Source: Omnitrophica WOR_2 bacterium RIFOXYA2_FULL_38_17 (GTDB lineage: Bacteria; Omnitrophota; Gorgyraeia; Zapsychrales; Zapsychraceae). Taken from it: 61,664 nt of DNA. A program made the position numbers and the translations under genes. The stretch is from the NCBI GenBank assembly GCA_001805965.1, contig MHHG01000018.1, positions 4,306-65,969 of the forward strand, read 5' to 3'. This document shows, piece by piece, positions 8,152 to 40,161 of this stretch (position 1 is its first letter; the number at the start of each line of letters is the position of its first letter). Under the pieces are notes generated by a model. The model had not been told where the DNA came from. It worked only from the letters and a program-made list of their open reading frames with translations, and made no database searches.

Positions 8152-8169
8152 AAAGGCAAGGAGATTTAA

Positions 8170-11788: not shown

Positions 11789-11792
11789 AATT

Positions 11793-19218: not shown

Positions 19219-20015
19219 AAAATACAAATATAGCTTTATCTTTAGTGTTAGTTATATTTCTTAATCAGCAACTATCTGAAGCGAGAAGTGGGTGTTGTTC
19301 GCATCATAGCGGTGTTTGTGGTTGTCTGTGTTGTGATGGTTCGCCTCTATCATCAACATGTGCCCCCTATTATCCTTATTGTAGTACTTCTTCAAAAATT
19401 GTTCCAAAATTAGATTATCAAAAAAAGAATATTTTTCCTAATAATGTATATTCAACCACTAATGTAAAAATTAGTGAGTTGATTGATGATGTAGGTATAT
19501 TTGAAGACAAAACAAATAAAGAGTTATACAGGGTAGAACGGGTAATTGATGGGGATACGCTTCTATTAACCAGTGGCGAAAGAGTCCGATTAATAGGTAT
19601 AGATACCCCTGAGAGCAAACCTAATGACAAAGCTAAGAGAGATGCCACGCGAGAAGGTAAGGATATTGAAACTATTACTAAGATGGGCAAAGAGGCAGCT
19701 GAGTTTGTTAAAGCTTTGATTAAGCCAGGTGATGAGGTAAGGATTGAGTTTGATGTTCAAGATAGGGATAAGTATGGCAGATTATTGGCGTATGTTTATA
19801 AGTTAATATGCTTAAATGATTGTCAAATATATTTCGTTAAAGATGAATATTCCAAATTAGATGACGGGTGGTATGAGTTTATTAACGCTACGATTATCAA
19901 AGAGGGCTACGCATCACCAATGACCATTCCGCCAAATGTTAAGTATGCAGATTTGTTTAAGGAGTTGTATAAAGAAGCTCGTGAGAACAACCGAGGATTG
20001 TGGAGGGAAGAATGA
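19215..20015 (+). CDS. secreted thermonuclease (SNase-like) with Cys-rich N-terminal region
   Basis: Signal peptide; GCCSHHSGVCGCLCCDG segment; SNase core VIDGDTLLLTSGERVRLIGIDTPE...DKYGRLLAYVY...EGYA. Confidence 0.8.
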   Translation: MKNTNIALSLVLVIFLNQQLSEARSGCCSHHSGVCGCLCCDGSPLSSTCAPYYPYCSTSSKIVPKLDYQKKNIFPNNVYSTTNVKISELIDDVGIFEDKTNKELYRVERVIDGDTLLLTSGERVRLIGIDTPESKPNDKAKRDATREGKDIETITKMGKEAAEFVKALIKPGDEVRIEFDVQDRDKYGRLLAYVYKLICLNDCQIYFVKDEYSKLDDGWYEFINATIIKEGYASPMTIPPNVKYADLFKELYKEARENNRGLWREE

Positions 20016-22247: not shown

Positions 22248-22276
22248 AATTGTTTGTTTTTTCCGGAAGTAATTTT

Positions 22277-23434
22277 ATGAAAAGAAAAAAGAATATATTA
22301 TTGAACTCTAAACCGGAATATTATGATGATATTCTAATTCACCCGATTATTTTTGATGGAATAAAGAAGGTGTATTCAGTTGAAATATGGTTAAGACGTA
22401 TATTCATGATAATTCTTGATATTTCCTATGGAAAGGACTATGCAGATAAGATTCCTAAAGAGTTAAGGCAGAAGTTAATTGATAGGATGCGCCCTTTTAA
22501 GGATTTAGCGTATGTTTATGAGAGGAAGAGTTGGCATCTTATTGAGACAGCGTGGCTTGATGAATTTGGATCATTATTAATAGATAATGAGGTTAAAAGT
22601 CTTTTTAGGGATTTTACAGGGACAACCGTAGGAATGTTTAAAGAGAATATAAAAGGGTTTATTAACTTAAGAAATCTTATAGCGCATAATCATGGATTTT
22701 CGGTCGAAGCAATGTCTGAGCTTGAACGCCTAGAAAAGTATTTTAAAAAAATGAGAAAAATTTTTCTAAAAAATATTTACAACAACAGTATTAAAAATAT
22801 CTATTCCAATGTAGCAATGAAAGACCCATCAGGACAAAAGTATTCCATTGATGGTTATATGTCTGTTGGTTCAAAATTTGATATTACCGAAGATGGCGAG
22901 ATTCCTTTTAAACCTGATGAGGAAATATTTTTATATAAGATACTCAAAAACAATATTGATCTTAAATGGCCCCTATCAATTCATGTAGACAAGCTAAAAC
23001 ATAATTATGTGATTACATATGTTAACCAAGATAATAAATTAAGAGTAGAAGGAGATCCCTCCTTTTCTAAAGTATCAGAGAAGAATTACTCAGCGCTTGT
23101 TGATAAATTCTCTATGATTGACGATATTGTTTCCGCATTTTTAGTTTGTAAGTACTATATAGTATTTTTGATACCTACAGCACTGGTAAAAGATAATCCA
23201 ATAAAAAAGGCTGATGTTCTAATGAATGCTATTAGCGAGATCCATAGGGATTTATTTTCTAAAAGAAAGTCTATAAAAAAGGAAAAATTTGAGAATTATT
23301 TCTATCCCAAGATATGGTTGCTAGACAAAATAATGAAGGAAAATAAGAGCTTTATGACTGTCTGGAAAGATGATTCAGTAGGCTTACAGATTCCTATAGG
23401 AAATGATCCGCTTGATATTGATTCGGATGATTAA
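22277..23434 (+). CDS. Swt1-like HEPN domain protein with an uncharacterised C-terminal domain
   Basis: N-terminal EIWLRRIFMIILDISYGKDYADKIPKELRQK ... INLRNLIAHNHG (Rx4H HEPN motif in the RNxxAH form), plus about 200 aa of unknown sequence. ATG 22277 is preferred over TTG 22250. Confidence 0.65.
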   Translation: MKRKKNILLNSKPEYYDDILIHPIIFDGIKKVYSVEIWLRRIFMIILDISYGKDYADKIPKELRQKLIDRMRPFKDLAYVYERKSWHLIETAWLDEFGSLLIDNEVKSLFRDFTGTTVGMFKENIKGFINLRNLIAHNHGFSVEAMSELERLEKYFKKMRKIFLKNIYNNSIKNIYSNVAMKDPSGQKYSIDGYMSVGSKFDITEDGEIPFKPDEEIFLYKILKNNIDLKWPLSIHVDKLKHNYVITYVNQDNKLRVEGDPSFSKVSEKNYSALVDKFSMIDDIVSAFLVCKYYIVFLIPTALVKDNPIKKADVLMNAISEIHRDLFSKRKSIKKEKFENYFYPKIWLLDKIMKENKSFMTVWKDDSVGLQIPIGNDPLDIDSDD

Positions 23435-23562: not shown

Positions 23563-25533
23563 ATGGGAGAACTAATGAATATAAAAGAATTACTAGATTT
23601 GATTTTTAAGAATCCTAATACTAAATATGGACTGGTAGAATTCGAAGGTATTAATTTTGAACAAGTTCTTTCGATATCTGAGGATAAAGGAAAGTATTTT
23701 GTTAATTGCTTAAAGAGAAATAAGCCTATTCAGATTTACTCTGATAAAAAATCGGCTCCTGAAGAAATTATTCGGCAGCTCTGGCTATATAAGCTTCTTA
23801 ATTATTACGGCTATCCACTTGACAAGATAGAAGTTGAGAAAGAAATCCATTTCGGCACGCAAGTAAAGGAAAAAGCAGCAGATATCATTGTATTTCAGGA
23901 TGATGGTAAAACACCGAGGATAATCATCGAGTGTAAAAAACCAGAACGTGATGATGGAATAGATCAGCTAAAATCATATTTGAATGCTGAGGGTGCTGTT
24001 ATTGGAGTTTGGTCGAATGGAGCTGAAAGAGTTATTCTTTATCGTCCCTATCCTAAAGAATTTGAAGATACTTTGACTGACATTCCAAAGCGTGATCAGA
24101 CCATTGATGAGGTGTTAGATGAAAAATGGACACTTGAGCATATAAGGACTAATCGTGATCATTACAACATCAAAAGTATTATTCAGCAGTTGGAGGAGTT
24201 AGTTCTCGCCAATTCCGGCGAGGATGTGTTCAATGAAATCTTTAAGCTCATTTATGCAAAACTTTATGATGAGAAAGAAGCACGTAATCGTCCGGGCCAT
24301 GAAGTTCACTTTGTTAAATCAAAAGACCCACGAGTTACTTATGAAAGAATTAATAAATTGTTTAAGGGAGCTATTCAAAAATGGCCAGGTATTTTTCTTC
24401 CCCAAGAAAGCATTAGATTGTCTCCAGAACATCTTAATGTGTGTACGGGTCCTTTGCAAAAAACATTATTCCTTGATGACCGTAACCTGACCGTAATGGA
24501 CCAAACATTTGAGTATCTTATGCCAGATGTTGCTAAATCTAAACAAGGGCAGTATTTTACGCCACGTCATGTGATCGATATGTGTGTAAAGATGCTTAAT
24601 CCTAAGAAGAACGAATATGTTATCGATCCAGCATGTGGGTCTGCTGGGTTTCTTGTGCACGCTATGCAGTGGGTTTGGGATAATGATTTAAAGCATGGTG
24701 ATAAAGAATCACAAGTTGAATATGCATCTGAATGTCTATGGGGGATTGATTTCGAAGAAAAAGCAGTAAAAATTGCAAGAGCGTTGATGCTTATTGCTGG
24801 AGATGGTCGATCGCACATTTTCAAGCTTAATTCACTTGACCCAAAGGATTGGATGTTTGATGATTCGGAACGATTAGATGCGCGTGGGAAGCTTTCTAAA
24901 ATGTTACAGCAATTAGAAAATTACGAGCAAAACGAAGATAATAAGAAAAACTTTCGATATTTTAATTTTGATGTGGTGCTTACGAATCCCCCGTTTGCTG
25001 GAGAAATTAAGCAAAAAGATTTGCTTAAGAATTTTTATCTTGCGCGAAATAAACAAGGGAAGATACCGAACAAGGTTGAGCGCGATATTCTATTTATTGA
25101 ACGTGATTTGAACTTTCTCAAACCAGGCGGACGTATGGCCATTGTCCTTCCCCAAGGTAAATTTAACAATACCAATACAGAGTTTATCCGTAACTATCTT
25201 TTTGAAAAAACACGCATTCTTGCAGTGGTTGGATTAGACACTAACACTTTTAAGTTACCTGCGCCTGCTAAAGGAACTAGTACAAAGACAAGTATATTGT
25301 TTGTACAAAAATGGAAAGAGGATGAAAAGCCTCTGACTGATTACCCTATTTTTATGGCCACAAGCCAAAAGACAGGAAAAAATAACAGTGGAGACTATAT
25401 CTACAAAAAAGATGATCATGGGAACTATGTTGAAAATGAATATGGAGAGCGACTTGTTGATCATGATTTAAATGAAATTGCAGAAGGTTTTATAAATTTT
25501 GCAAAAGAACAACATTTTGATTTCTGGGGATAA
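23563..25533 (+). CDS. N6-adenine DNA methyltransferase (HsdM/gamma class) with an N-terminal HsdR_N-type PD-(D/E)xK domain
   Basis: AADIIVFQDDGKTPRIIIECKKP (D...ExK); motif I VIDPACGSAGFLV; motif IV LTNPPFAG. 656 aa. An alternative start lies at 23575. Confidence 0.85.
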   Translation: MGELMNIKELLDLIFKNPNTKYGLVEFEGINFEQVLSISEDKGKYFVNCLKRNKPIQIYSDKKSAPEEIIRQLWLYKLLNYYGYPLDKIEVEKEIHFGTQVKEKAADIIVFQDDGKTPRIIIECKKPERDDGIDQLKSYLNAEGAVIGVWSNGAERVILYRPYPKEFEDTLTDIPKRDQTIDEVLDEKWTLEHIRTNRDHYNIKSIIQQLEELVLANSGEDVFNEIFKLIYAKLYDEKEARNRPGHEVHFVKSKDPRVTYERINKLFKGAIQKWPGIFLPQESIRLSPEHLNVCTGPLQKTLFLDDRNLTVMDQTFEYLMPDVAKSKQGQYFTPRHVIDMCVKMLNPKKNEYVIDPACGSAGFLVHAMQWVWDNDLKHGDKESQVEYASECLWGIDFEEKAVKIARALMLIAGDGRSHIFKLNSLDPKDWMFDDSERLDARGKLSKMLQQLENYEQNEDNKKNFRYFNFDVVLTNPPFAGEIKQKDLLKNFYLARNKQGKIPNKVERDILFIERDLNFLKPGGRMAIVLPQGKFNNTNTEFIRNYLFEKTRILAVVGLDTNTFKLPAPAKGTSTKTSILFVQKWKEDEKPLTDYPIFMATSQKTGKNNSGDYIYKKDDHGNYVENEYGERLVDHDLNEIAEGFINFAKEQHFDFWG

Positions 25534-25538
25534 ATATA

Positions 25539-26048
25539 ATGACTGATTTGAACCAGAAAGAGAAAATAAATGAATGGTATACACAAGCACTGCATGAACA
25601 GTTTAATCCATTTATTAAATTATGGATCAGTTTTAATGGGTGGTATAAATGGAAGTTTCCGGATGCGAATACAGATAAAAAGGCAATTGATAAATGCAAA
25701 CAAAGCGGGGATCTTTTAACCTATTATCAGCGATGTTTTTCAGATAATCAATTTTGTGATTACCTTGATAGACTCGGCAGGGAATTGAATACACGCCCAC
25801 TTGAGAATTTAACGCGCCCGAGAGATAAAAAATTGGTACTGAGCAAGCTTGAAGATGAACAGGGGAACATTAGCTATCTTGATAACAGTACTGAGGCATT
25901 TAAGAATTATTTAGATGTGATATACCGTGTAAGATGCAATCTTTTCCATTGCGAGAAATCGCCTAATAGTGAGAGAGATAAACTAATAGTTGAGTGCGCA
26001 TATAAAACATTAAGTTCAATGATGAAGCAGATTATTGATACTTTTTAA
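25539..26048 (+). CDS. small HEPN-like protein embedded between the methyltransferase and specificity genes
   Basis: YLDVIYRVRCNLFHCEKS carries an Rx4H motif in an all-helical 169-aa protein. It sits 5 nt after the methyltransferase stop and 12 nt before hsdS. Confidence 0.5.
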   Translation: MTDLNQKEKINEWYTQALHEQFNPFIKLWISFNGWYKWKFPDANTDKKAIDKCKQSGDLLTYYQRCFSDNQFCDYLDRLGRELNTRPLENLTRPRDKKLVLSKLEDEQGNISYLDNSTEAFKNYLDVIYRVRCNLFHCEKSPNSERDKLIVECAYKTLSSMMKQIIDTF

Positions 26049-26060
26049 GGAGCAAATCAA

Positions 26061-27437
26061 ATGGCTGTTTGGTCAATAATAAATAAAAATGAAATTGAAG
26101 GTTCATCTCGAATAGATGCTGAATATTATCAACCCAACATCTTAGATGCCGCTAATGCGGTATTAAAATCTTCCCATAGCACTTTGGGGTCATTGGTTAA
26201 AAATGGTTATCGTGTTGTATATGAAAATACAAAAATATTAACTGAAGAAGAAGTGAATCACGATAAAGATTGTTTGTTTATGCAAGCAGCTAACATTTCG
26301 AGTGATGGTTTGTCTTTTGATGTTGAAAATATGGGATATGTGCATGAAGCTGATTGGATTAGATATCCTAAGGGGAGAGTGAATGAAGGCGAAATTCTAA
26401 TTGAAGTCAAAGGCCAGGCAGAAAAAGTCGCAATTGTTCCGTCTTATGTTCCTGAACGAACACTTGTAAGCGGGACTTTATACAAATTATGTTTGAAAAA
26501 AGGGCTATCCCATGAATATTTATTTGCATACATGAGTAGTAGATATGGGAAATTGTTAAGGGATAGATTGAAAACAAATACCTTGATCGCATATGTTTCA
26601 AAGCCAGATTTGTACTCTATTCCTGTTTATTTACCAGGCAAAGAAACAGAGCAAGAGATTAAAGAGCTTATCAAAGAATCGTATAAAGTTGTGCAAGAAG
26701 CTAAATCTATGTATTCTAAGGCAGAAGAGATAGTATTAGTTGAAATAGGATTAAGGAAATTAGATATAAAAGATGATTTATTTTATACTGCATCGTTAAA
26801 CGAGGTAAAAGATTGTAATCGTATTGATGCTGAGTATTATATCCCAAAATACAAAATTTTAATGCACCATATTGCTAAATTTTCTCCTCAACAATTAGAT
26901 GATCTTGGTAGATTTAAAAAAGGCATAGAGCCTGGCAGTGAGAAATATGAAGATCAAGGAGCTCCGTTCATCCGGGTTAGCAACATATCTAAGATGGAGT
27001 TGAACGATAATAATCAGAAGTATTTAGCAAAAGAATATTACAATGAATTAAGAAGAAATTATGAGCCCAAGATAGATGAAATGTTGCTTACTAAAGATGC
27101 TACACCCGGGATTGCATATATCTTAAAAGAAAAGGTGGAAGGCATTATATCAGGAGGAATTATTCGAGTTAAATTAAATCCAGGAGTAAAAAAAGAATAT
27201 GTGGCCCTTGTTATTAATTCGCTTATAGGGCAAATGCAGATTAAACGTGATGCTGGGGGAGCTATTATAAATCACTGGAGACCCGATCAGATTAGAGCTA
27301 TGGTAATTCCCATGCTTAGTCAACCAATACAAGAAAAAATAGAAGAAATATGTTTAGAGTCATTCAATAAAAGAAAAGAAGGAAAACGATTGCTAGAACA
27401 AGCAAAAAGTAAAATTGAGGCAATGATTGATAGGTAA
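26061..27437 (+). CDS. hsdS: restriction-modification specificity subunit (HsdS-like, two target recognition domains)
   Basis: Two repeats of the conserved RIDAEYY segment (residues around 17 and 253), each followed by a variable TRD, and a coiled C-terminal conserved region. Confidence 0.85.
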   Translation: MAVWSIINKNEIEGSSRIDAEYYQPNILDAANAVLKSSHSTLGSLVKNGYRVVYENTKILTEEEVNHDKDCLFMQAANISSDGLSFDVENMGYVHEADWIRYPKGRVNEGEILIEVKGQAEKVAIVPSYVPERTLVSGTLYKLCLKKGLSHEYLFAYMSSRYGKLLRDRLKTNTLIAYVSKPDLYSIPVYLPGKETEQEIKELIKESYKVVQEAKSMYSKAEEIVLVEIGLRKLDIKDDLFYTASLNEVKDCNRIDAEYYIPKYKILMHHIAKFSPQQLDDLGRFKKGIEPGSEKYEDQGAPFIRVSNISKMELNDNNQKYLAKEYYNELRRNYEPKIDEMLLTKDATPGIAYILKEKVEGIISGGIIRVKLNPGVKKEYVALVINSLIGQMQIKRDAGGAIINHWRPDQIRAMVIPMLSQPIQEKIEEICLESFNKRKEGKRLLEQAKSKIEAMIDR

Positions 27438-27465
27438 GTGTATTGGATTTATTGTGTGACGATAA

Positions 27466-27714
27466 TTGACTTTGGCCAGAAAAAACAAACATAAGATAAT
27501 AGATAAAAGAATGAAAACAAAAAGAACGAAAAAAAATGACAGTATTTGTCCTGATTATAATCCAGAGATATGTAAATATGTTGATTCGCCAAGAATTTGT
27601 GCATTTGTAAGAAGCGACAAAAAGTGTAAAAAACCAAGTAAGACCGGGAAGAATGCCATAGAAAACTCGAAATCAAAAACTAGGAGCAAATCAAATGGGC
27701 TTCGACCTAAGTAG
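27466..27714 (+). CDS. small, very basic Cys-containing protein (uncertain gene)
   Basis: K/R-rich 82-aa ORF with CPDYNPEICKYVDSPRICAFVRSDKKCKK. TTG start, or ATG at 27511. Its 3' end overlaps the next start. Confidence 0.3.
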   Translation: MTLARKNKHKIIDKRMKTKRTKKNDSICPDYNPEICKYVDSPRICAFVRSDKKCKKPSKTGKNAIENSKSKTRSKSNGLRPK

Positions 27715-27889
27715 AAATAGTATTGTTTTATCAGAATCAGAGCGTGATTTACTGAAAGAATTGTGCGTAAAGCACGGAGTCTCTACAGCTATGCTTGAAG
27801 ATCTACTCAAAGTAGAAAAAGAATATCAGCTTAAAGAGCGCAGATTTGGTATTTATGAGAAGTTGCGGCAGATAATAGAGGCGTATTGA
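27695..27889 (+). CDS. small helical protein upstream of the DndD-like gene
   Basis: 64-aa ORF with RBS AGGAG 7 nt upstream. Its stop overlaps the start region of the DndD-like gene. Confidence 0.5.
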   Translation: MGFDLSRNSIVLSESERDLLKELCVKHGVSTAMLEDLLKVEKEYQLKERRFGIYEKLRQIIEAY

Positions 27890-29910
27890 TTATGAAATTC
27901 TTAAAATTATTTATTGATAATTATAAAAGCTTCCAAAAACCGGTAGAGATCAATCTGGATATAACAGATGCGGACAAAAATATTGTTCTCATTGGTGGAA
28001 TGAATGGTGCAGGAAAGACAGCGATATTAGAAGCGATTAATATTTGTTTATATGGCGAAAGGAAAGAAAAGCTTTATAAAGCGATCAATCGAAGGGAATT
28101 GGACAAGGGTAACGGAAACATATTGTTTGAGCTGCATATTTTGCTTGATGATGGTGATGTTTTAAAAGTTAAAAGATCGTGGCGGTGTGCTTCCCACGGA
28201 TTGAATAAAATAACTTCCTCAGATTTAGAAGAAAAGCTGGTTTTAGTTCGTAATGAGCAGCGTCTTGCTATTTCAGATCAAGGGGGGTGGCAGGACTTTC
28301 TTGAAAAAACTATTCCTTATGGCATTTCTCAATTTTTCTTTTTTAATGGTGAAAAAATTGAATATATGGCATCTGATGAGGATTCAGAAGGCAGATTGAA
28401 AGAATCCATAGAAGCATTGCTGGGCATTGAGAGAGCCAAGCAATTATTGAGAGATTTAGAAGAACTTAGGAAAGAACAACGCAAAAAACGAAGCGATATT
28501 ACTGATGATGATATTAAGGCGAAGGAGATTCAGCTTGATTCTGATAGAAAGAAGATCGAAGAATGGAAAAAGGAATTAAGTTTTCTTGAAAAAGAATTAA
28601 ATGAGCTAAATGAAAAGGCCAGTGATTTGGAAACGGAGTTTACAAAACGGTTTGGAATCTCTTCTTTCGGGAGCTCTGGATTAAAGCAGGATGAGATTAG
28701 ACTGGTTCAATTGAATTCACGAAAAGCGGAGATAGATAAGGAGATACGCGAATTTTGTACCAATATTCTTCCTTTTAGCCTTTTATCAAATAAATTCTTT
28801 TTGGTTCTTGATCAAATTCAAAAGGAGCGTCAATTTAGACAAGCGAAGCATGGCTTAAAAGCACGTGAGGAGTTAGTAGACCAGCTTATTGAGAAATTGT
28901 ACCAACCCGATTGTGTCGCATGTAATAAACCATTTGACATAAAGAAAAAAGACTATCTGCAAAAAGAGATTTTGAGTGTATTTCAAGAAAATGCGCGTCA
29001 GAAAGAAGAATCGTCGGATGTTGAACCAATTTTGAATTTATCAGAAATGGATGAGCGAAAAATAGAAGCTCAGTTATCTAATGAGCGGGGTGTTGTAAAT
29101 TTGAAAGAATTATTAAATGAGCGGGAATCGGTTATTAAAGAAGTGCAAAAATTAGAGGGGATACTTAAAAAAACATCTGTTGATAATGAAGATAAAGATG
29201 CTTTGAGGGAACTTCAAATTCAGAGGGATGAAATCCAGCAAAATATTGGAAGACGTAAACAGGAAATAAGATATTTGGATGAACGTATCGCAGAGAAAGA
29301 CGCCGCTATTTCTTCGATGGAACGCGAACTAACCACTCTATACGAGAAATACACACAGGACAAGGGTAAGGTTGATATTATTGTTAAAATTGGTTCTGCG
29401 ACAAAAGTATTAACGGAATTTATTGAGCGGCTTCGAGTGAATAAATTGGAAGAACTTAGACAGCATATTTTTACTATGTATCGTATGTTAGCTAGCAAAA
29501 GCGATTTAATTGCTGATATTGTGATTGATCCTTTGACTTATCGGATAAAAATTATTGATAAACATGGGACATCAGTGAACAAACAAAATTTATCTGCTGG
29601 GGAAAAAGAAGTTTTTGCTATTTCATTATTGTGGGGATTAGCGAAAACATCAAAATATAAATTGCCGGTTATTATCGATACTCCGTTGGCTCGATTGGAC
29701 AGCTTGCATAGAGACGCTATTGTTTCTAAATATTTTCCCGAAGCCGGTGAGCAGGTGGTCATTTTATCAACTGATACAGAAGTTGACCAAAATTATTACA
29801 AGCGGCTTGAGCCACATCTTTCAAGGGTTAATAAGTTATTGTTTGACCGATATCGAGAACTAACGACTTTGGAAGAAGGATATTTTTGGGGAGAAAATAA
29901 TGGCAGATAG
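27886..29910 (+). CDS. DndD-like SMC/ABC-type ATPase
   Basis: N-terminal FLKLFIDNYKSF...LIGGMNGAGKTAILEAINICLYGE, a long coiled coil, and C-terminal LSAGEKEVFAISLLWGLAK...PVIIDTPLARLDSLHRD...VVILSTDTEV, closely following the DndD layout. 674 aa. Confidence 0.8.
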   Translation: MIMKFLKLFIDNYKSFQKPVEINLDITDADKNIVLIGGMNGAGKTAILEAINICLYGERKEKLYKAINRRELDKGNGNILFELHILLDDGDVLKVKRSWRCASHGLNKITSSDLEEKLVLVRNEQRLAISDQGGWQDFLEKTIPYGISQFFFFNGEKIEYMASDEDSEGRLKESIEALLGIERAKQLLRDLEELRKEQRKKRSDITDDDIKAKEIQLDSDRKKIEEWKKELSFLEKELNELNEKASDLETEFTKRFGISSFGSSGLKQDEIRLVQLNSRKAEIDKEIREFCTNILPFSLLSNKFFLVLDQIQKERQFRQAKHGLKAREELVDQLIEKLYQPDCVACNKPFDIKKKDYLQKEILSVFQENARQKEESSDVEPILNLSEMDERKIEAQLSNERGVVNLKELLNERESVIKEVQKLEGILKKTSVDNEDKDALRELQIQRDEIQQNIGRRKQEIRYLDERIAEKDAAISSMERELTTLYEKYTQDKGKVDIIVKIGSATKVLTEFIERLRVNKLEELRQHIFTMYRMLASKSDLIADIVIDPLTYRIKIIDKHGTSVNKQNLSAGEKEVFAISLLWGLAKTSKYKLPVIIDTPLARLDSLHRDAIVSKYFPEAGEQVVILSTDTEVDQNYYKRLEPHLSRVNKLLFDRYRELTTLEEGYFWGENNGR

Positions 29911-31423
29911 GATCATTACTTCAGAGATGACTGAAAAAACTTTGAGGAAAATAAGCAATGAAACAGGCATAGAAATATCTTCTTTAGCGAGATTATCTAT
30001 TGCACTATCTATCCGATTTTATAATTATCAGGAGTTACAGTTAAATGATACTAAGGGGCGTGAAATTAGGCGACAGTCTCTTTTTGGTCGAGAAGAACAG
30101 CTATACAAAATTATTTTAAATGTTTTACATAAAAAAGATTTCTCTGATGATGAATTTGTGTCTAATGACTCTGTTGTTAAGAAACATGTTGAACATGGGG
30201 TGCAATTGATGGCTCAAATGTATGAAGAGGTCAATTATGATGCCTCAGAATTATTAGCACGTTTAGGTAGTTTAGTTGAGGATAAAGGTGTTTCTTATGC
30301 ACCTTCAGATGTTCCAAAAATCAATGTTCATGTGGGAACGGATCAATTGACGAAGGATAAGATATTTTTTGAAATAAATAATACTATTCGCCACGCTAAT
30401 TCACATTTGGCTATTATGGGAAAACCTGGTGTTGGTAAGACACAGGTGCTTTTGAAAATACTTGCTGACATAAGGCAGTTATCAAATTACCAGACTAATT
30501 TTATCTTTTTTGATTATAAGGGCGATGTAGCCAGCTCGGGGAAATTTACATCAGCTACAAGAGCGAAGGTCTTTAAGCTTCCTGAGCAAATTCTGCCAAT
30601 AAATCCTTTTATGCTTCCTGATTATACTGAAACGCAGGTTAAGATATCTGCTAAGGAAAAGGCTGAATCATTTGCTTCCATCAATAGACAATTTGGAACG
30701 GTACAGAAGGGAAATTTAACCGAGGCCATAAAAAGGGCTTATGATGCCCGTAATGGATTTGAGAAAAGGTATCCTGATTTTAGTGAAGTGGCTAATATTG
30801 TTCAACAAATGTATGAGGATAATAACAAAAAGCCAGATTCTTTGGTTGAAATATTGAAAGATTTTTCTGAATTTGGTATTTTTTGGGACCATTCTCGTTC
30901 TGATAAATTGATTAATAGAGTTTCTGAAGAAAGTTTTATTGTCGATTTGCATCAGTTGCCGGTCCTAAAAGAGCTTGTTGCATATTTAGTCATAGAAAGG
31001 CTTTACAAAGAGATGGCGTCATTGCCAGATTCTTTGACAAAAGATGGGAACAGATTTATTCGTACAATTTTAGTTATTGATGAGGCGCACAATTATCTAT
31101 CTCAGAAGAATCCATTTTTACAAAGAATAATTCGAGAAGGACGTTCGAAAGGCATTGTTGTCTTTTTCGCTTCGCAGTCTCCGAATGATTATATGCAGGA
31201 CTTCTTTGATTTTCAGGAGTTATTAGAATTTTCAATGATATTTGCATGTGATGGTGTATCGGCAAGTGCAGTTGAACGATTGCTAGGATGTAGCCGCACT
31301 ACAGCAAAAAGTTTACAGCAGATGGTTGCTAAATTAAAGCCATTTCAAGTAATAACAAAAGGCATTTCAGATACTGATGATTATACGGTATTTAAGGGTG
31401 AGGCATTTTATAAGAACTATTGA
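29900..31423 (+). CDS. DndE-like N-terminal domain fused to a HerA/FtsK-type (DUF87-like) P-loop ATPase
   Basis: N-terminal RIITSEMTEKTLRKISNETGIEISSLARLSIALSI...KKHVEHGVQLM resembles DndE. Walker A GKPGVGKTQ, Walker B ILVIDEAHNY, EGRSKGIVVFFASQSP. Overlaps the DndD-like gene by 11 nt. Confidence 0.7.
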   Translation: MADRIITSEMTEKTLRKISNETGIEISSLARLSIALSIRFYNYQELQLNDTKGREIRRQSLFGREEQLYKIILNVLHKKDFSDDEFVSNDSVVKKHVEHGVQLMAQMYEEVNYDASELLARLGSLVEDKGVSYAPSDVPKINVHVGTDQLTKDKIFFEINNTIRHANSHLAIMGKPGVGKTQVLLKILADIRQLSNYQTNFIFFDYKGDVASSGKFTSATRAKVFKLPEQILPINPFMLPDYTETQVKISAKEKAESFASINRQFGTVQKGNLTEAIKRAYDARNGFEKRYPDFSEVANIVQQMYEDNNKKPDSLVEILKDFSEFGIFWDHSRSDKLINRVSEESFIVDLHQLPVLKELVAYLVIERLYKEMASLPDSLTKDGNRFIRTILVIDEAHNYLSQKNPFLQRIIREGRSKGIVVFFASQSPNDYMQDFFDFQELLEFSMIFACDGVSASAVERLLGCSRTTAKSLQQMVAKLKPFQVITKGISDTDDYTVFKGEAFYKNY

Positions 31424-31580: not shown

Positions 31581-32354
31581 ATGGATGATAAATTAGTTAA
31601 TATCTTACAGTTACAGATAGAAAAGTGCGAAATAATATTAAATGAGTATGTAGCAGATAGATCTGATTATTCTCTTTATGTTTTAGAGAATAAGAGTGGT
31701 CAATGGATAACAGAGACAGAAAATTATTTAAAATATGCAATTGAAAACAAGCAATATCAAGAAGAGTTTAAAGAACGCAGAGTATATGATGGAGATGGTT
31801 ATAATAATGCCATAAATTCCGTCGGTACCCTATATGAGAAATTAGGTTATCTAAATTCATTTGTAGAATTATTAAAAGAGGGTTATATATCTAGCAAGCC
31901 TGTTATTCTAAAAAATAATAAGAATTCAAGAGATGTTTTTGTTGCAATGTGGTTTGATGAACAAATGGATGAATTTTATAACTCTGGCATTAAGCCGACG
32001 ATAGAAAAATTAGGATATAATCCATTGAGAGTTGATGAGCATCAGCACAACAATAAAATAGATCTTGAGATTATTTCTCAAATTGAAAAAGCTGCATTCT
32101 TAGTAGCAGATTTAACAGGAGATAGAGGCGGAGTATATTATGAAACAGGTTATGCGAAAGGTTTGGGAATCCAGGTTATTTATTCTGTTAGATGTGATTA
32201 TCATAAGAAAGTACATTTTGATATTGAACATGAAAATTTAATTATTTGGGATAACATAAAGGTATATTCACAAAAATTAGAAAAAAGAGTAAGTGGAACT
32301 TTTGGTGTGTTTAAGAACTCTTACAAAAAAAATGAAATAGATTGGGAAGAATAA
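31581..32354 (+). CDS. nucleoside 2-deoxyribosyltransferase-like (NDT/TIR-like Rossmannoid) domain protein with a helical N-terminal domain
   Basis: C-terminal half VFVAMWFD...AAFLVADLTGDRGGVYYETGYAKGLGIQVIY matches the NDT-like pattern (strand-Gly/Asp loop, D-x-G-x-x-x-E-x-G-y-A). Confidence 0.6.
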   Translation: MDDKLVNILQLQIEKCEIILNEYVADRSDYSLYVLENKSGQWITETENYLKYAIENKQYQEEFKERRVYDGDGYNNAINSVGTLYEKLGYLNSFVELLKEGYISSKPVILKNNKNSRDVFVAMWFDEQMDEFYNSGIKPTIEKLGYNPLRVDEHQHNNKIDLEIISQIEKAAFLVADLTGDRGGVYYETGYAKGLGIQVIYSVRCDYHKKVHFDIEHENLIIWDNIKVYSQKLEKRVSGTFGVFKNSYKKNEIDWEE

Positions 32355-32818
32355 AACTAAAAGAATTCAGAAATAATTAATTTTAAAACTATTTGTGAAT
32401 AATAATTATTTGCTAGGAAGAACGAATATCTTCAATTTCAACAATTATTATCTCCATCGATAAAATGCGTTGCCAATAAAGATAGTACATCTTGGATTAT
32501 GACTAAGATGTCGAGGTTAATATATTCTCTATAATAGTCTATTTTATGGTTTAGAATTTTAATTGTACCTCCTTATTTTTTTAATTTTTCTCATGTATTT
32601 TAAGAAAAAGCTGTTATTATTATATTAGAAACAATCATATTAGAAATGATTGTAAGAAGCATAGAAGTAAAACAACTATAGAATTGTGATTAATAGAACT
32701 TGAAGGGAGTTTATCTTCAAGTCAATAGGGAAAATCACAAGTGTTGAATAAACGCAGGATAACTGTGGAAAAACACTTGGGATTTTCCCTTTTTTTATGC
32801 TCAAGAAAGGAGCTAAAG

Positions 32819-34084
32819 ATGAAAATAGAGGTTATTTCGATAAATAAGTTAAAACCGGCAGTATATAATCCCCGAGTTTCATTAAAACCGGGTGACAAAG
32901 ATTACGAAAAGTTAAAAAACAGTATCGCCACGTTTGGTTATGTAGAGCCAATTGTATGGAATCGCAAAACGGGAAATGTTGTGGGAGGGCATCAGCGGGC
33001 TGAAGTTCTTAAGCAAGAAGGGTATGAGGAAGTGGAAGTTGTTGTTGTCGAGCTTTCACTTGATAAAGAAAAATCGTTAAATCTTGCTTTAAATAAGATC
33101 AGCGGAAGGTGGGATGAAGAAAAATTATCGTTATTGCTCAGTGAATTAACCCGAATTCCTGATTTTGATGTTGGGCTAACGGGTTTTGAGATGCCTGAAA
33201 TTACAAATCTTTTTGACAAATTTAATGAAAAACAAGATGATGATTTTGATTTTTCTTCTGAGTTAAATAACATTGAAACGCCAGTTACTCAAAAAGGAGA
33301 ACTCATTGAACTCGGGTCCCACCGATTGCTTTGTGGCGATTCATCGAAAGAAGAGGATATAAAAAGATTATTATCCGGACAGAAAGTTAGGCTTATCCAT
33401 ACCGACCCACCTTATAATGTGAATTATTATGGAGGAAACCGCCCAACGCCTAAAGCCCGGCCAAAGAACTCTCGTCATTGGGAGAGGATATACTCAGATG
33501 ACATGACGCAAGAACAATATGAACAATGGTTAAAGAATATCCTGTCTAATACAAAGGAAGTTCTGCAAGAAGGGGCTCCATTTTATATATGGAATGGACA
33601 TAAACAGTTTGGTCCGATGCATCAGATGTTGACTGCACTGGATCTTCATGTTGCTTGTGTTATTACATGGGCTAAACCTAATTTTGCTATTGGCTATGGG
33701 GATTATAATCAGCAGACAGAGTTTTGTCTTTACGGATGGAAGAAAGGTAATGCACATTTTTGGAACGGTCCAACCAATGAATCTACTCTTTGGGAAATTC
33801 ATCGGGACTCGACAAAACAATATATCCATCCAACCCAGAAACCCATTGCCTTGGCACAAAGAGCAATGAGAAATAGTTCGCAACATGGAGATGTTGTTTT
33901 TGATCTGTTTCTGGGATCGGGATCGACCTTGATTGCTGCTGAAAGTCTGGGGCGCCGCTGTTTTGGAATAGAAATCGATCCGAAATATTGTGATGCTATT
34001 GTGAGGAGATATATATCTTTTGTTGGGATAGATAAGGTTTCAGGTGACTTGAGAAAGAAATTCATCAAGGAGGTGAAGTTATGA
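32819..34084 (+). CDS. ParB-like nuclease domain fused to an N4/N6 DNA methyltransferase (beta class)
   Basis: ParB-N segment LKPAVYNPR...VVGGHQR; DPPY motif IHTDPPYNVNY; SAM motif FDLFLGSGST. ATG 32819 follows AAAGGAG; the track starts at GTG 32741. Confidence 0.85.
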   Translation: MKIEVISINKLKPAVYNPRVSLKPGDKDYEKLKNSIATFGYVEPIVWNRKTGNVVGGHQRAEVLKQEGYEEVEVVVVELSLDKEKSLNLALNKISGRWDEEKLSLLLSELTRIPDFDVGLTGFEMPEITNLFDKFNEKQDDDFDFSSELNNIETPVTQKGELIELGSHRLLCGDSSKEEDIKRLLSGQKVRLIHTDPPYNVNYYGGNRPTPKARPKNSRHWERIYSDDMTQEQYEQWLKNILSNTKEVLQEGAPFYIWNGHKQFGPMHQMLTALDLHVACVITWAKPNFAIGYGDYNQQTEFCLYGWKKGNAHFWNGPTNESTLWEIHRDSTKQYIHPTQKPIALAQRAMRNSSQHGDVVFDLFLGSGSTLIAAESLGRRCFGIEIDPKYCDAIVRRYISFVGIDKVSGDLRKKFIKEVKL

Positions 34085-34773: not shown

Positions 34774-36399
34774 ATGAAGGATAAAATTGAAAAAAGAATT
34801 AGTGCTACAAGAAGAATCGCCGGAAGAAATTTCGCATTTTTCCGCAAAGAATACTTTTCGCATTACTGTGATATTCCTGATTCTGTGTTTCATGAAGAAC
34901 TTTCTCATGATCTTTCGAAAATGACATTAAAAAGAAGTGTGAAATTTGCACTTGCGGCCCCTCGTGATAGTGGAAAAAGTACAATTATCAGTGCTATTTA
35001 TGTGATTTACTGTATTTGTTATAAGCTTGAGGATTTTATAGTGATAATTTCCAATACAAGTGAGCAGGCAGCTAGTTTTTTATGTGATATAAAAAAAGAG
35101 TTTGAAATGAATGAAAAACTAATAAGTGATTTTCCTGATGTCTGTGAGAAAGGAAAACCACCCAGATGGTCTCGGCGGGAAATAGTTACGCGCAATGGAG
35201 TGAAGGTTTTGGCTTTAGGTTCAAATCAGCAGATTAGGGGAAGACGTAATAAATCCTTCAGGCCTTCACTTATCATTCTAGATGATGTGGAAACAGATGA
35301 AAGTGCAAAAAATCCGGAGAGTTACCATAAACTTGAAGATTGGATTACAAAGGCAGTTTTAAAAGCGGGGACATCTGAAACGAATGTGATTTTTGTAGGA
35401 ACTATTCACCATTATGGATCATTGCTGGCTCAGTTTACGTCAGACAAGTCACATCCTGGATGGAGTAAGGGTATTTATCGTTCTATAATTTCTTATTCTA
35501 GTTCTCCTGATTTATGGCAAAGATGGATACAAATCTTTAATTATCAAGAATTTTATAAAGATCAGGAAGGGCCGGATGCTGCGAGATTGTTTTTCGAAGA
35601 CAATCAGAAAGGAATGCTGATGGGAACGGAAGTTTTGTGGCCTGAAAAGAGAGGTTATTATGATCTCATGGTCATGAGAGAGGAAGATGGGTATCTGAGT
35701 TTTGATAGTGAAATGCAAAATGACCCGGTTAACCCAAGAGATTGCTTGTTTAATTTAGATGAAATGCATTACTGGGATGATAAATTTGCATCTGAAGAAG
35801 AGCTGATAGCATCTTTTGCGAATGATACTATATGGTATGGATCTTGTGATCCAAGTATGGGGAAACATAGAAATAAGGGGGATTTTTCAGCTATTATTAC
35901 AATAGTTAAGAATAGAATAACAGGAACAATATATGTAATTAGTGCAGATATTGCCAGAAGAGACCCTGATAAAATTATCAATGATGTTCTCATGCATCAC
36001 AGAATTCGACAATACAAAGAATTCTCTTTTGAATCTAACAATTTTCAGGAATATCTTTCGTCACAATTGATGAAAAGATCACAAGAAGAGGGCATATATC
36101 TTCCATTAAAAGAAATCAAACATACTTCTGATAAAACGGAAAGAATTATGTGGTTACAGCTGTTCTTGAAAAAAGGAACGATACAACTTTCCAGAAAGCA
36201 TCATACGCTTCTTGAACAGATGAAGTTTTTTCCAAAAGGAAAATATGATGATGGACTTGATGCCTTGGAAATGGTTTTTCATCTTTGTTACAATAACGGG
36301 AGTAACAGTTTAGAAATCTTTGAGAGACAATTAAAAAATATGCGTCTTTCAAAATCAAGAAATGAAATAATGAAACGTAATAGGCTTTTGGTTTATTAA
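34774..36399 (+). CDS. phage terminase large subunit-like ATPase/nuclease
   Basis: Walker A ALAAPRDSGKST, Walker B LIILDDVETDE, IRGRR arginine finger region, VGTIHH, and a C-terminal RNaseH-like part GSCDPSMGK...DGLDALEM. Confidence 0.75.
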   Translation: MKDKIEKRISATRRIAGRNFAFFRKEYFSHYCDIPDSVFHEELSHDLSKMTLKRSVKFALAAPRDSGKSTIISAIYVIYCICYKLEDFIVIISNTSEQAASFLCDIKKEFEMNEKLISDFPDVCEKGKPPRWSRREIVTRNGVKVLALGSNQQIRGRRNKSFRPSLIILDDVETDESAKNPESYHKLEDWITKAVLKAGTSETNVIFVGTIHHYGSLLAQFTSDKSHPGWSKGIYRSIISYSSSPDLWQRWIQIFNYQEFYKDQEGPDAARLFFEDNQKGMLMGTEVLWPEKRGYYDLMVMREEDGYLSFDSEMQNDPVNPRDCLFNLDEMHYWDDKFASEEELIASFANDTIWYGSCDPSMGKHRNKGDFSAIITIVKNRITGTIYVISADIARRDPDKIINDVLMHHRIRQYKEFSFESNNFQEYLSSQLMKRSQEEGIYLPLKEIKHTSDKTERIMWLQLFLKKGTIQLSRKHHTLLEQMKFFPKGKYDDGLDALEMVFHLCYNNGSNSLEIFERQLKNMRLSKSRNEIMKRNRLLVY

Positions 36400-37684: not shown

Positions 37685-38680
37685 ATGAAAAAAAATGATA
37701 CTGTTATGCGCAAATTATTGTTGGATTGTGTGAAAAAATGGTCTAATAACATCAGGGTTCGTTTTCCCGATTCAATAATATTCAGGCTTGTTGGGACTGA
37801 TTTTGCAGAGATTGAGATGATTATTGGCAGAAACAGAAACAATAAACCGAGTGTAACAGCTAATATGCAGAGCGATGCCTCAGCTTTTGAGGGATGGGCT
37901 TTGGTCTTGAAGGCGAGTATAGTGGAATTAAAGAAACTTACTTTGACTTGGGATGAGCCTTTGGACAAGAACGACAAACATTATCAACGATTTCTTTATC
38001 GCGTTGAGAAATTTTCTGTCATATTTCAATCATGGTTTTATGTTGGGCAGTCATATCGTAAAGCATTGAGAATAAAGCTGGGAAGCAAATATAAAGTAAA
38101 TGTTCCCATAAAAAAGCGCGATCAAAGTTATTTGAAAAGTACAGCGGATAATGAGCGAAAACTTGAACAGCAGATGATTAATGATTCTGTATGTCGGCAA
38201 TGGTTGAAGGAAAAAGTTGGTGGCTCAATGATTGGTAATCAGTTGCCTGTTGGTGTCTTTGATGGAAATGTTGCCAAGGGCAATGCGATCTTTACCGGAC
38301 AAGCCAGTGCCATTGATCTATGGGGTGTTAATGAAGAGGGGGATGAACTTAGCATTTTTGAACTCAAATTGCCAAGTAATAAGAAGGTCGGGATTGTTTC
38401 TGAGTTGTTTTTTTACTCTATGGTTATGGGAGATATTATTAATGGCCGTTTTTCATTTGAGGGTAAACGATGTATGGAAGTTGATCCTTGGCCACCAGAT
38501 TACATTAGAGTAGGAAAAATTAAAAAAATTAAAGCATTTATTTTAACGACTGCAACACATTGTTTAATAAATGATAATGTTTTAAAGATTTTGAATGATG
38601 CTTTGAGCCCCAAATTTGTATTCCTCAGGAGTGATCCAAGTGAGTGCAGTTTGCATATAAAGAATAAGGAGGCATTGTGA
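37685..38680 (+). CDS. PD-(D/E)xK nuclease-fold protein (C-terminal half), unknown N-terminal domain
   Basis: ERKLEQQ...ASAIDLWGVNEEGDELSIFELKLPSNKKVGIVSELFFY fits the E...D...ExK restriction-endonuclease-like core. Confidence 0.5.
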   Translation: MKKNDTVMRKLLLDCVKKWSNNIRVRFPDSIIFRLVGTDFAEIEMIIGRNRNNKPSVTANMQSDASAFEGWALVLKASIVELKKLTLTWDEPLDKNDKHYQRFLYRVEKFSVIFQSWFYVGQSYRKALRIKLGSKYKVNVPIKKRDQSYLKSTADNERKLEQQMINDSVCRQWLKEKVGGSMIGNQLPVGVFDGNVAKGNAIFTGQASAIDLWGVNEEGDELSIFELKLPSNKKVGIVSELFFYSMVMGDIINGRFSFEGKRCMEVDPWPPDYIRVGKIKKIKAFILTTATHCLINDNVLKILNDALSPKFVFLRSDPSECSLHIKNKEAL

Positions 38681-39978
38681 AGGTTATTATTCATCGCGGC
38701 ACAAAAGAGATCGGCGGAAGCTGTGTTGAGTTAAAGACGGATAAGACTAGGATTCTGATCGATTTTGGAATGCCATTGGTAGATGTTAACCAAGAACCAT
38801 TTGATTCAAAAAGCATCTTAGGTAAAACCATCGAAGAACTCAAAAAACTTAAAATATTGCCTGATATTAAGGGGCTTTATAAAGACGAAGAAAAAAACAT
38901 TGATGCTGTTCTTATTTCTCATGCCCATTTGGATCACTATGGATTACTTAAGTATGTTAATCCGAATATTCCGATTTATATGAGCGAGGGGGCAAAGCAA
39001 ATGATCGAGGCTTCAGATGTTTTTATTCCTAACAAAGTTGGAAAAATTAACTCACGAGTTATAGCTAAATATCAAAAGACTGCGATTGGCGATCTTGAAG
39101 TGACTCCGTATTTGGTTGATCACTCAGCGTTTGATGCTTTGGCTTTTTTGATTGAGGCTGAAGAGAAAAAGTTATTTTATTCTGGAGATTTCCGTGCGCA
39201 TGGAAGAAAAAGCGTTTTGTTTGAGAAGATAATTTCCGATCCACCGCGAAATATTGACGTTCTTTTAATGGAAGGATCAATGTTGGGGAGGGGTGAGCAG
39301 ATTTATAAGGATGAGACAGCTGTTGAAGAAGTGATAGAAGGTATTTTGAGACAAAAAAAGAATATTGCCTTTTTATTTGCCTCTTCCCAAAATATTGACC
39401 GTCTTGTTTCGGCGTATAGAGCTTGTCTTAGAACAGATTCGATATTTGTGATTGATATTTATACGGCTTTTGTCTTGAATGAAATTGGTAACATATCTAC
39501 AAGAATACCTCAATTTAGTTGGAAGAACATACGTGTTAAATATTTTAAATCCCATGCCGACAGTTTGGCAGAAACTGATCACAAAGAACTCTTATATATT
39601 TTTAATAAGAAAAAGATTGAATTAGAAGAGATATCTGAAAAAAGAAGAAAAATCCTTATGCTTATGCGGCATAATTCACTTTTTCCGGTAGTTATTAAGA
39701 AGATTGATAATATTAAGGAAGCTGTGATTATATATTCCATGTGGCAGGGGTATTTGACGCATGAGTTTGAAGAATATTGTAGGAAAAAGGAGATTGAAAT
39801 AAAACAAGTCCACACGAGCGGGCATGCAACAATTGAAGCTTTGAAAGCTTTTTCAGATGCGATAAATCCAAAGACTTTAATTCCTATTCATACTTTCAAT
39901 AAGAATGAGTATTTGTCTTTGTTTAAGAATGTTACGGTGCTTAATGATGGTGAGAGTTTTGTTTTAAGGGATAATTAG
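38677..39978 (+). CDS. metallo-beta-lactamase fold hydrolase, beta-CASP-like nuclease
   Basis: EIGGSCVELKTDKTRILIDFG; LISHAHLDHYG (HxHxDH); late VHTSGHAT motif. GTG start overlaps the upstream stop (GTGA) and follows AAGGAGG. Confidence 0.75.
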   Translation: MKVIIHRGTKEIGGSCVELKTDKTRILIDFGMPLVDVNQEPFDSKSILGKTIEELKKLKILPDIKGLYKDEEKNIDAVLISHAHLDHYGLLKYVNPNIPIYMSEGAKQMIEASDVFIPNKVGKINSRVIAKYQKTAIGDLEVTPYLVDHSAFDALAFLIEAEEKKLFYSGDFRAHGRKSVLFEKIISDPPRNIDVLLMEGSMLGRGEQIYKDETAVEEVIEGILRQKKNIAFLFASSQNIDRLVSAYRACLRTDSIFVIDIYTAFVLNEIGNISTRIPQFSWKNIRVKYFKSHADSLAETDHKELLYIFNKKKIELEEISEKRRKILMLMRHNSLFPVVIKKIDNIKEAVIIYSMWQGYLTHEFEEYCRKKEIEIKQVHTSGHATIEALKAFSDAINPKTLIPIHTFNKNEYLSLFKNVTVLNDGESFVLRDN

Positions 39979-40014: not shown

Positions 40015-40161
40015 ATGAAGAGAATGATCAAACTTTGCAAAGATTGTGGGTACAAAGAGGAAGTGAAGATTTATTCTCGGGAAGAGATTCAAAGATTGAA
40101 TCTAAGGCCAGGTAATCCTTGTTGTAAAAAGTGTGGAAGCCTAAAAGTGGAGTTAAAATGA
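40015..40161 (+). CDS. 48-aa zinc-ribbon protein (absent from the ORF track)
   Basis: ATG 40015 follows AGGGGAGGA. MKRMIKLCKDCGYKEEVKIYSREEIQRLNLRPGNPCCKKCGSLKVELK has two CxxC pairs. Its stop overlaps the next ATG (ATGA). Confidence 0.55.
   Translation: MKRMIKLCKDCGYKEEVKIYSREEIQRLNLRPGNPCCKKCGSLKVELK

Follow-up and report, generated by a model that had tools for sequence, protein, structure and literature searches.

The stretch of DNA analyzed here (the window, 61,664 nucleotides) derives from Omnitrophica WOR_2 bacterium RIFOXYA2_FULL_38_17 (assembly GCA_001805965.1, contig MHHG01000018.1, positions 4,306 to 65,969), and all coordinates given below refer to it. Positions 23563-31423 hold one intact, mobile and widely transferred unit of about 7.9 kb, in which a nuclease-methylase and an HsdS-type specificity subunit are followed by parts of a DNA phosphorothioation (Dnd) system, namely the short protein Sp-DndD, the ABC ATPase DndD and a DndE domain fused to a HerA/FtsK ATPase (Table 1). 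An earlier interpretation made from the letters alone, referred to as the sequence-only reading, had flagged 27466-31423, which is part of that unit, as a DndD-like ATPase and a DndE::HerA fusion lacking sulfur-incorporation genes. The four open reading frames (ORFs) it described are all present. The cassette genes abut or overlap, and the start of the fusion overlaps the stop of DndD by 11 nt. We take 23563-31423 as the mobile unit because the DNA homology to the nearest relative, locus L004, runs from the start of the methylase (23575) to the stop of the fusion (31421), with unrelated flanks on both sides; it is broken only across the target-recognition domains of HsdS, and exactly there. 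The repeats which were said to bracket the block could not be confirmed, since the search for them yielded nothing meaningful, only matches of 18-29 nt with 72-90% identity. A scan for promoters and terminators gave no informative sites, with 73 promoter-like sites compared to 52.4 ± 7.9 in shuffled sequence and counts near expectation.

The DndD ORF matches the NCBIfam model TIGR03185 over its full length with 382.9 bits (cut-off 245.85) and the PADLOC DndD model with E = 8e-136, is about 28% identical to Escherichia coli DndD over the full length and scores better as DndD than as PbeC (453 vs 419 bits). The motifs of an ABC ATPase are intact: Walker A (GGMNGAGKT, aa 37-45), the Q-loop (149-158), the signature (LSAGEKE, 569-575) and Walker B with the D-loop (VIIDTPLARLD, 595-605) are at least 90% conserved in 66 homologs. 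The coiled coil carries at its apex a CVAC motif (aa 343-346, window 28912-28923) that resembles the Rad50 zinc hook. A CxxC at this position occurs in two of the 66 homologs, and most of them carry EEPEPIY instead; a zinc hook as feature of the DndD family was rejected, as CVAC is confined to the subclade of the window.

Directly upstream of DndD, the 64-aa ORF previously described as a tiny helical protein turned out to be Sp-DndD, with a Pfam match (PF20306, E = 2e-10) that passes the cut-off. The DndC models TIGR03183 and PRK06850 match it too, in their C-terminal region, and a profile built from 53 members of the Sp-DndD family aligns to residues 435-485 of E. coli DndC (E = 1e-9). In DndC the residues 433-482 bind the globular head of DndD, and the exchange L458D/E462A/R471A abolishes binding (Fu et al., PMC12193691). 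The conserved LL and RR.G.Y positions of Sp-DndD map onto the interface residues of DndC in an alignment for which residue numbers are taken to be identical in strains 55989 and B7A. By this homology to the 435-485 interface, Sp-DndD is the leftover DndD-binding piece of DndC.

The N-terminus of the fusion protein (residues 4-109) matches Pfam DndE with 42.6 bits (cut-off 25, E = 8.5e-11), and the DndE equivalog TIGR03184 scores 35.9, below its cut-off of 71.85. In the AlphaFold2 (AF2) model (predicted local distance difference test, pLDDT, 72.6) two strand-helix-helix units form the N-terminus, and Foldseek placed the C-terminal domain of DptH (7es4, E = 1e-20, template modeling score 0.81) at the top, followed by HerA, VirB4 and defence HerA proteins. 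With the family profile, 7es4 was matched at E = 2.6e-28 and DndE (7x4e) at E = 9e-4, along with several HerA proteins. The ATPase carries GKPGVGKT (Walker A, 174-181, with K180), VIDEAH (Walker B, 392-397, with D394 and E395), REGRSKG (412-418, with R412 and R415) and FFASQ with the sensor Q426; the key residues of both Walker motifs, both arginines and Q426 are invariant in 20 sequences. It matches PADLOC mad8 as well (E = 5.6e-22). The protein is a DndE double ribbon-helix-helix joined to a HerA/FtsK ATPase that is closest to the DptH C-domain, and the fusion proposed by the sequence-only reading is borne out. At 90% identity its homologs group into more than 900 clusters, of which almost all measure about 508 aa and one member is archaeal; an exhaustive profile search delimited a radiation of approximately 500-aa DndE::HerA proteins comprising 175 clusters at 50% identity (E < 1e-30). 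Phage and plasmid collections contained no close relatives, only HerA or DptH domains of about 25% identity. An E. coli match from this search was considered as MADS and rejected, for it proved to be DptH.

The first gene of the cassette combines Pfam HSDR_N_2 (E = 3.8e-22) and N6_Mtase (E = 9e-39) in one ORF. The nuclease residues D107...E123-x-K125 of its N-terminus and the methyltransferase motifs DPACGSAGFL (355-364, DPxCGS) and NPPF (475-478) are at least 90% conserved in 41 homologs, so that the methylase polypeptide is predicted to carry a nuclease as well, with intact active-site motifs in both domains. Its best match in the PDB is RM.BsaXI (8w0p, E = 3e-25) and its best match in NCBIfam is MAD2 of the MADS system (289.8 bits, below the cut-off of 720). 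Within the subclade of the window the methylase is short, compared to about 920 aa in most relatives, which contain a coiled-coil insert of about 270 aa. The specificity subunit matches PADLOC Specificity_I (E = 1e-38) and over its full length NCBIfam MAD5 (127 bits, below the cut-off of 400). The sequence-only reading had listed restriction partners among the missing parts and had overlooked the PD-(D/E)xK domain of the adjacent methylase. Its neighboring "R-M pair" does consist of genes of the restriction-modification (R-M) type, to be described more precisely as a type IIB-like nuclease-methylase and an S subunit which belong to the same unit.

A genome survey with one genome per species returned 146 relatives, and 80 loci were kept. 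They are spread over at least a dozen phyla, including Bacillota, Bacteroidota, Desulfobacterota, Gamma-, Beta- and Alphaproteobacteria, Planctomycetota, Verrucomicrobiota, Acidobacteriota, Chloroflexota, Spirochaetota, Nitrospirota and others. The order [HTH]-methylase-HsdS-SpDndD-DndD-DndE::HerA, where HTH is a helix-turn-helix gene, is the same in Paenibacillus polymyxa, Aequorivita nionensis and metagenome contigs, and the series from methylase to fusion is seen again in most of the 80 loci. Of 81 non-redundant loci, 77 have DndD immediately upstream of the fusion; the pair is tightly conserved. For genes further upstream, 56 informative loci with at least 7 kb of upstream sequence were counted; 43 of these carry methylase and HsdS ahead of the Dnd genes, and an Sp-DndD was called in 45.

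In 25 complete cassettes, pairwise identity averages 0.69 for the methylase, 0.70 for DndD, 0.73 for the fusion and 0.62 for Sp-DndD, compared to only 0.29 for HsdS, the hypervariable component of the cassette. Conserved machinery together with a divergent HsdS is an R-M-like signature. Correlations of r = 0.74-0.88 connect the identity matrices of methylase, DndD and fusion (methylase-DndD 0.82, DndD-fusion 0.88), and HsdS is decoupled from them. Together with the shared gene order and the bounds of the L004 block, these correlations substantiate the link to the adjacent methyltransferase that the sequence-only reading had considered.

Several further genes are found within the operon. Of a 212-aa protein with a winged helix of the Mrr_N/RAMA type (family F3), 47 loci contain one to three copies, up to three of them in tandem and usually placed between Sp-DndD and DndD; a hidden Markov model search of all six frames of the window did not find it. 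The slot between HsdS and Sp-DndD holds RhuM, DarT with DarG, YhcG or NOV_C in relatives, and in one locus an AAA_15/21 ATPase and an HNH nuclease are located between Sp-DndD and DndD. For other defence genes the operon interior is a hot spot of insertion (loci L007-L086). In the window, the HsdS-SpDndD slot, which carries variable insertions in other loci, is occupied by the lysine-rich 82-aa ORF. This ORF lies inside a 257-nt segment (27438-27694) which is missing from L004, matches no family in Pfam, PADLOC or NCBIfam and has no BLAST counterpart in the 86 related loci (about 10 kb around each) that the BLAST and tblastn comparisons took in. The sequence-only reading had listed this basic four-Cys protein with the block; as it is unconserved in the 86 loci and its segment is missing from L004, it was rejected as a component. 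Between methylase and HsdS, the 169-aa gene is confined to the subclade of the window, being shared with L004-L006 at 62% identity. Its homologs, 170-176 aa long, fall into about 25 clusters, and no Pfam domain was seen in any of these. Its product contains YRVRCNLFH (aa 129-137), in which the Rx4H motif is invariant in 14 sequences, and gives weak matches only, to PADLOC DzbB (E = 2.7e-5) and ApeA (9hxb, E = 0.11). A single-sequence AF2 model was unusable (pLDDT 43). The protein is probably a small ApeA-like HEPN domain.

With DndB, DndC, DptF and DptG of E. coli 55989 as queries, tblastn gave no match in the window or in any of the 86 loci. The same search detected DndD in the window and in all loci at about 28% identity, and DptH matched only via its C-terminal ATPase (residues 1296-1681). 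The list of missing Dnd parts in the sequence-only reading therefore holds for DndC and is extended to the 86 loci, and it also holds for DptF and DptG, with DptH represented by the ATPase alone. These results support the view, likewise expressed there, that phosphorothioation chemistry is not encoded in the clade of the window, where a 64-aa segment of DndC is left without the catalytic body. DndC accompanies the pair of DndD and fusion at none of the 86 related loci, and some deeper relatives do carry DndC beside the pair. Two loci, L092 (256-5274) and L096 (65-5264), contain divergent fusions in DndC-DndD-DndE::HerA operons, whose DndC is 38-41% identical to E. coli DndC and whose type of fusion is related to the window family with profile E-values of 1e-43 to 1e-48. 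Another member of the radiation shows the order Sp-DndD-DndD-fusion. In L096 the operon is followed by a 132-aa RE_endonuc gene. Judging from their full DndC, loci of the L092/L096 type probably make phosphorothioate, and their operons appear to be phosphorothioation-type ancestors of the cassette. Because of the homologies seen, between Sp-DndD and DndC and with the DndC-bearing deeper relatives, the simplest history would start from a DndC-DndD-DndE::HerA phosphorothioation operon, in which the catalytic body of DndC was lost, the DndD-binding segment was kept as Sp-DndD and a methylase-specificity pair of the MAD2/MAD5 type was acquired.

Table 1. Genes of the cassette and further annotated genes of the surrounding island (window coordinates).
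Feature	Position	Strand	Length (aa)	Description
394-aa ORF	22250-23434	+	394	directly upstream of the cassette; RNLIAH at aa 141-146
Nuclease-methylase subunit	23563-25533	+	656	PD-(D/E)xK domain and N6-adenine methyltransferase
169-aa accessory protein	25539-26048	+	169	between methylase and HsdS; probably ApeA-like HEPN domain
HsdS-type specificity subunit	26061-27437	+		two target-recognition domains
82-aa ORF	27466-27714	+	82	lysine-rich, four Cys; conserved-gene status unsupported
Sp-DndD	27695-27889	+	64	free-standing copy of the DndD-binding segment of DndC (by homology)
DndD	27886-29910	+		ABC ATPase; likely true start ATG at 27892
DndE::HerA/FtsK fusion	29900-31423	+	507	DndE (aa 1-110) fused to HerA/FtsK P-loop ATPase (aa ~140-507)
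257-aa protein	31581-32354	+	257	directly after the cassette; predicted TIR/NDT-like effector
Serine recombinase	10163-11821	-		
IS110 transposase	13673-14953			
Secreted SNase-like nuclease	19215-20015			
ParB-N6_N4 methylase	32741-34084			
Large terminase	34774-36399			phrog_38, E = 7e-97
MBL/RMMBL hydrolase	38677-39978			
DUF4062 protein	40131-41282			
DUF2130 protein	41300-42640			

The cassette is located in an AT-rich integrative island (about 9000-46000) with a GC content of 0.30-0.36, compared to 0.40-0.44 in the flanks. No recognizable portal or capsid genes were found downstream of the island's terminase, and the island looks like a degraded prophage turned defence island. The chromosomal flanks (621-8628 and 50440-54086) comprise pyrF, a bacterial V-type ATPase operon (subunits A, B, I, K), a polyamine aminopropyltransferase-like gene and umuC. 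The 394-aa ORF ahead of the cassette has no match in Pfam, PADLOC, NCBIfam or PHROGs; its RNLIAH corresponds to the Rx4H motif of the HEPN type, and the product may be an Abi-like RNase. The 257-aa protein behind the cassette matches PADLOC "Effector TIR" (E = 3.9e-13) and phrog_16139 (E = 1.7e-37) and, weakly, nucleoside 2-deoxyribosyltransferase (NDT), by which it is classified as a TIR/NDT-like effector. It does not accompany the cassette in other loci.

On balance, we consider it probable that the cassette is an ATP-dependent, methylation-based, restriction-like defence system on a re-purposed phosphorothioation scaffold, parallel to MADS. The domain identities, the intact catalytic motifs, the linkage, the inheritance as a unit, the co-variation, the hypervariable HsdS, the missing DndC and the homology of Sp-DndD to DndC are the observations on which this proposal builds. 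From them we infer a defence function, N6-methyladenine (m6A) as the mark, a physical complex and a step that requires ATP. HsdS would set the specificity and direct the type IIB-like N6-adenine methyltransferase/PD-(D/E)xK polypeptide to bipartite sites, where m6A would mark the sites of the host as self. DndD, as a Rad50-like ABC ATPase, would clamp DNA with its heads, and Sp-DndD would hold the DndD head at the contact which DndC makes in canonical systems. In DndCDE the coiled-coil-2 of DndD binds DndE (Fu et al., PMC12193691); correspondingly, the DndE domain of the cassette would hold the coiled coil of DndD and dock the HerA/FtsK ring there. The fusion of DndE to a ring translocase of the HerA/FtsK type would give the DndD assembly ATP-driven loading on and translocation along DNA. 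By this engine the methylase-nuclease would be brought to its sites or, alternatively, DNA would be reeled in between unmodified sites, upon which foreign DNA would be cut, a role comparable to that of HsdR in type I enzymes and to the presumed role of MAD8 in MADS. A defence context is indicated by the defence genes inserted in the operons of relatives (RhuM, DarTG, YhcG, NOV_C, HNH), and likewise by the island of the window with its TIR-like, DUF4062 and HEPN-motif neighbors.

Several points weigh against this proposal. No experiments on any member of the cassette were found in the literature, and defence, methylation and complex formation are thus put forward from comparison. Type IIB enzymes need no ATPase, so that the two ATPases of the cassette are left unexplained by its methylase type. 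Around 60% of the relatives carry the F3 protein that the window lacks, and the version of the window may be a reduced or differently regulated form. Whole islands that descend together, instead of functional coupling, could account for part of the co-variation. The dndC search covered the 61.7-kb window and about 10 kb at each of the 86 loci. Finally, 13 of the 56 informative loci have no MAD2-like methylase upstream, some having housekeeping genes and some another R-M system (TdeIII with an N6_N4 methyltransferase) in its place. Because of these 13 loci, the triad of Sp-DndD, DndD and fusion may work or persist without the MAD2-like methylase.

The latter point also speaks for two independent neighbors, in which the triad would form a self-contained "HerA/FtsK capture" defence, sensing and pumping the DNA of invaders, as has been proposed for stand-alone HerA/FtsK capture systems (Rakesh et al., PMC10853773), and methylase and HsdS would be a self-sufficient type IIB-like R-M system in the same island. 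Other defence genes are freely inserted inside the operon, and enzymes of the type of BsaXI, the best PDB match of the methylase, function without ATPases. We regard this explanation as unlikely. Gene order and orientation are fixed across many phyla, the identity matrices of methylase and DndD correlate as closely as given above, and the homology to L004 sets in with the methylase and ceases with the fusion; moreover, the triad alone has no recognizable nuclease or other effector. The methylase clade was recovered only together with Dnd genes, in searches that were all made within that context.

Another possibility retains the association and narrows the function of the engine: DndD and DndE::HerA might be an ATP-dependent loader by which the methylase marks DNA, with restriction carried out by the PD-ExK domain or by accessory nucleases without a motor. 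DndD and DndE do belong to the modification complex DndCDE in canonical systems (PMC12193691), Sp-DndD keeps the contact which the modifying enzyme made with DndD, and MANTIS provides a case of ATPase-dependent methylation (MtsA/MtsB for MtsC). We nevertheless judge a loader restricted to modification to be quite unlikely, since Sp-DndD has only about 60 aa and is unfused to the methylase, offering no evident physical bridge, since the signal of specificity lies in HsdS (29% identity) and not in the DndE domain (61%), and since MAD8, the HerA homolog of MADS, is required for defence. A split canonical system, with DndC and DndA/IscS encoded elsewhere in the genome and working with DndD and DndE of the window, is very improbable: IscS can replace DndA (PMC10853773), deeper fusion relatives adjoin a real DndC and the dndC search reached the window and the loci, not whole genomes, but DndC was found at none of them, its slot upstream of dndD is taken by Sp-DndD, which would compete with a DndC encoded in trans, and it is the methylase-HsdS pair that is consistently linked instead.

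The methylation-based, restriction-like system can also be drawn more boldly, as a distinct class of ATP-dependent R-M. DndD with a DndE-tethered HerA/FtsK ring would here replace the superfamily 2 (SF2) motor of type I enzymes, and the cassette would be the first phosphorothioation scaffold that evolution has turned to writing and reading m6A; both the loading of the methylase-nuclease and the licence to cleave unmodified DNA would depend on the engine, with Sp-DndD as a switch on the DndD head. This version we advance only tentatively and as rather doubtful. If the restriction-like system is real, the "DNA-scanning" core of DndD and DndE would be a portable engine that serves more than one chemistry, using sulfur in the Dnd systems and adenine methylation in the cassette, with the intermediate steps, the full DndC and then Sp-DndD, still visible. 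The combination of an SMC-like ATPase and a HerA motor would join the known couplings of ATP and restriction (SF2 in types I and III, AAA+ in MANTIS and BREX), and part of the approximately 30% of DndDE-bearing taxa without DndC would be explained. The cassette is compact, intact and widespread, and since it is present in the culturable P. polymyxa, Lysinibacillus sphaericus, Methylotuvimicrobium buryatense and Aequorivita, it is directly testable.

Parts of the cassette have been noticed before. DndE-fused HerA/FtsK proteins beside DndD-related ATPases are mentioned under phosphorothioate modification systems (PMC10853773, citing Krishnan 2020). According to the same work, DndC is missing from about 30% of DndDE taxa, in which a different modification may be used; only cytosine methylases, in CxC systems, are named for it (PMC10853773). 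The gene pair and, in Pfam, Sp-DndD are already catalogued, and the cassette is partly anticipated by comparative genomics. A description of the linkage to an N6-adenine methylase and HsdS, or of experimental work, was not found in the literature, Krishnan 2020 being outside that check. The "undescribed module" of the sequence-only reading accordingly holds for this linkage and not for its parts. Neither NCBIfam (June 2026) nor PADLOC 2.0 includes a dedicated model of the cassette; its components match the DndD, Specificity_I and mad8 models of PADLOC. Taken together, the core idea of that reading, Dnd genes without phosphorothioation chemistry that are linked to a methylase, was right, and it is partly supported in a form that had to be both widened and tempered.

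Judged by its gene content, the cassette is not canonical Dnd, MADS, DndFGH or PbeABCD. With canonical DndBCDE (DptBCDE) it shares a DndD that passes the TIGR03185 equivalog, the double ribbon-helix-helix of DndE and the order of DndC piece, DndD and DndE. In contrast to these systems it has neither the PAPS-reductase/4Fe-4S catalytic domain of DndC nor, within the window, DndB; its DndE is fused to a HerA/FtsK ATPase instead of standing alone, and it is linked to an N6-adenine methylase-nuclease with an HsdS, in which, and not in DndE, the variation of specificity resides. The DndC-DndD-DndE::HerA variants (HerA/FtsK "clade-3"; Rakesh, Aravind and Krishnan, 2024), such as L092 and L096, contain the same dyad of DndD and DndE::HerA but keep the full DndC, whereas the clade of the window has the 64-aa Sp-DndD, the methylase and HsdS. 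To DndFGH the cassette is related by its HerA/FtsK domain, whose nearest match by sequence as well as by fold is 7es4, the C-terminal domain of DptH; DptF, DptG and the N-terminal domains of DptH (inactive helicase, target-recognition domain, inactive DAM, restriction endonuclease) are lacking. PbeABCD and the CxC-ABC-ATPase-DndE systems likewise contain a small protein next to an ABC ATPase from the DndD/CxC assemblage and its partner of the DndE family, and they are sometimes linked to methylases instead of phosphorothioation genes. They differ in that the HKD-SF2 protein PbeA is missing from the window, CxC systems have been described with cytosine methylases and the CxC DndE is not fused to HerA.

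Type IIB enzymes such as BsaXI and BcgI have the PD-ExK nuclease and the N6-adenine methylase on one polypeptide and a separate HsdS-like subunit, as the cassette does. BsaXI and its kind work without ATPase partners, whereas the cassette co-inherits two ATPases along with Sp-DndD, and most of its relatives carry the coiled-coil insert in the methylase. As far as the gene content can tell, the ATPases inherited with the pair speak against an ordinary type IIB enzyme. The closest parallel is MADS (mad1-8), which has been validated experimentally and requires MAD8 for defence (Maestri et al.). Methylase and HsdS have their best NCBIfam matches in MAD2 and MAD5, the ATPase matches mad8, and both systems couple a methylase of the m6A type and an S subunit to a DptH-like HerA ATPase and borrow parts of Dnd. 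The MAD2 and MAD5 matches of the cassette are all below the curated cut-offs, which indicates relatives of MADS and not members. The detection model of MADS makes the MAD6 kinase, the DptG-like MAD7 and the HerA-like ATPase MAD8 mandatory (Maestri et al.); homologs of MAD6 and MAD7 were not found by tblastn with DptG and by family scans of the cassette and its immediate neighbors, and MAD3 (OLD-like) and MAD4 (DUF4276) are missing from the window as well. MADS in turn is without DndD, DndE and Sp-DndD. The parts borrowed by MADS come from the DndFGH side of the phosphorothioation systems, those of the cassette from the DndCDE side. If the cassette acts as proposed, MADS would gain a mechanistic sibling.

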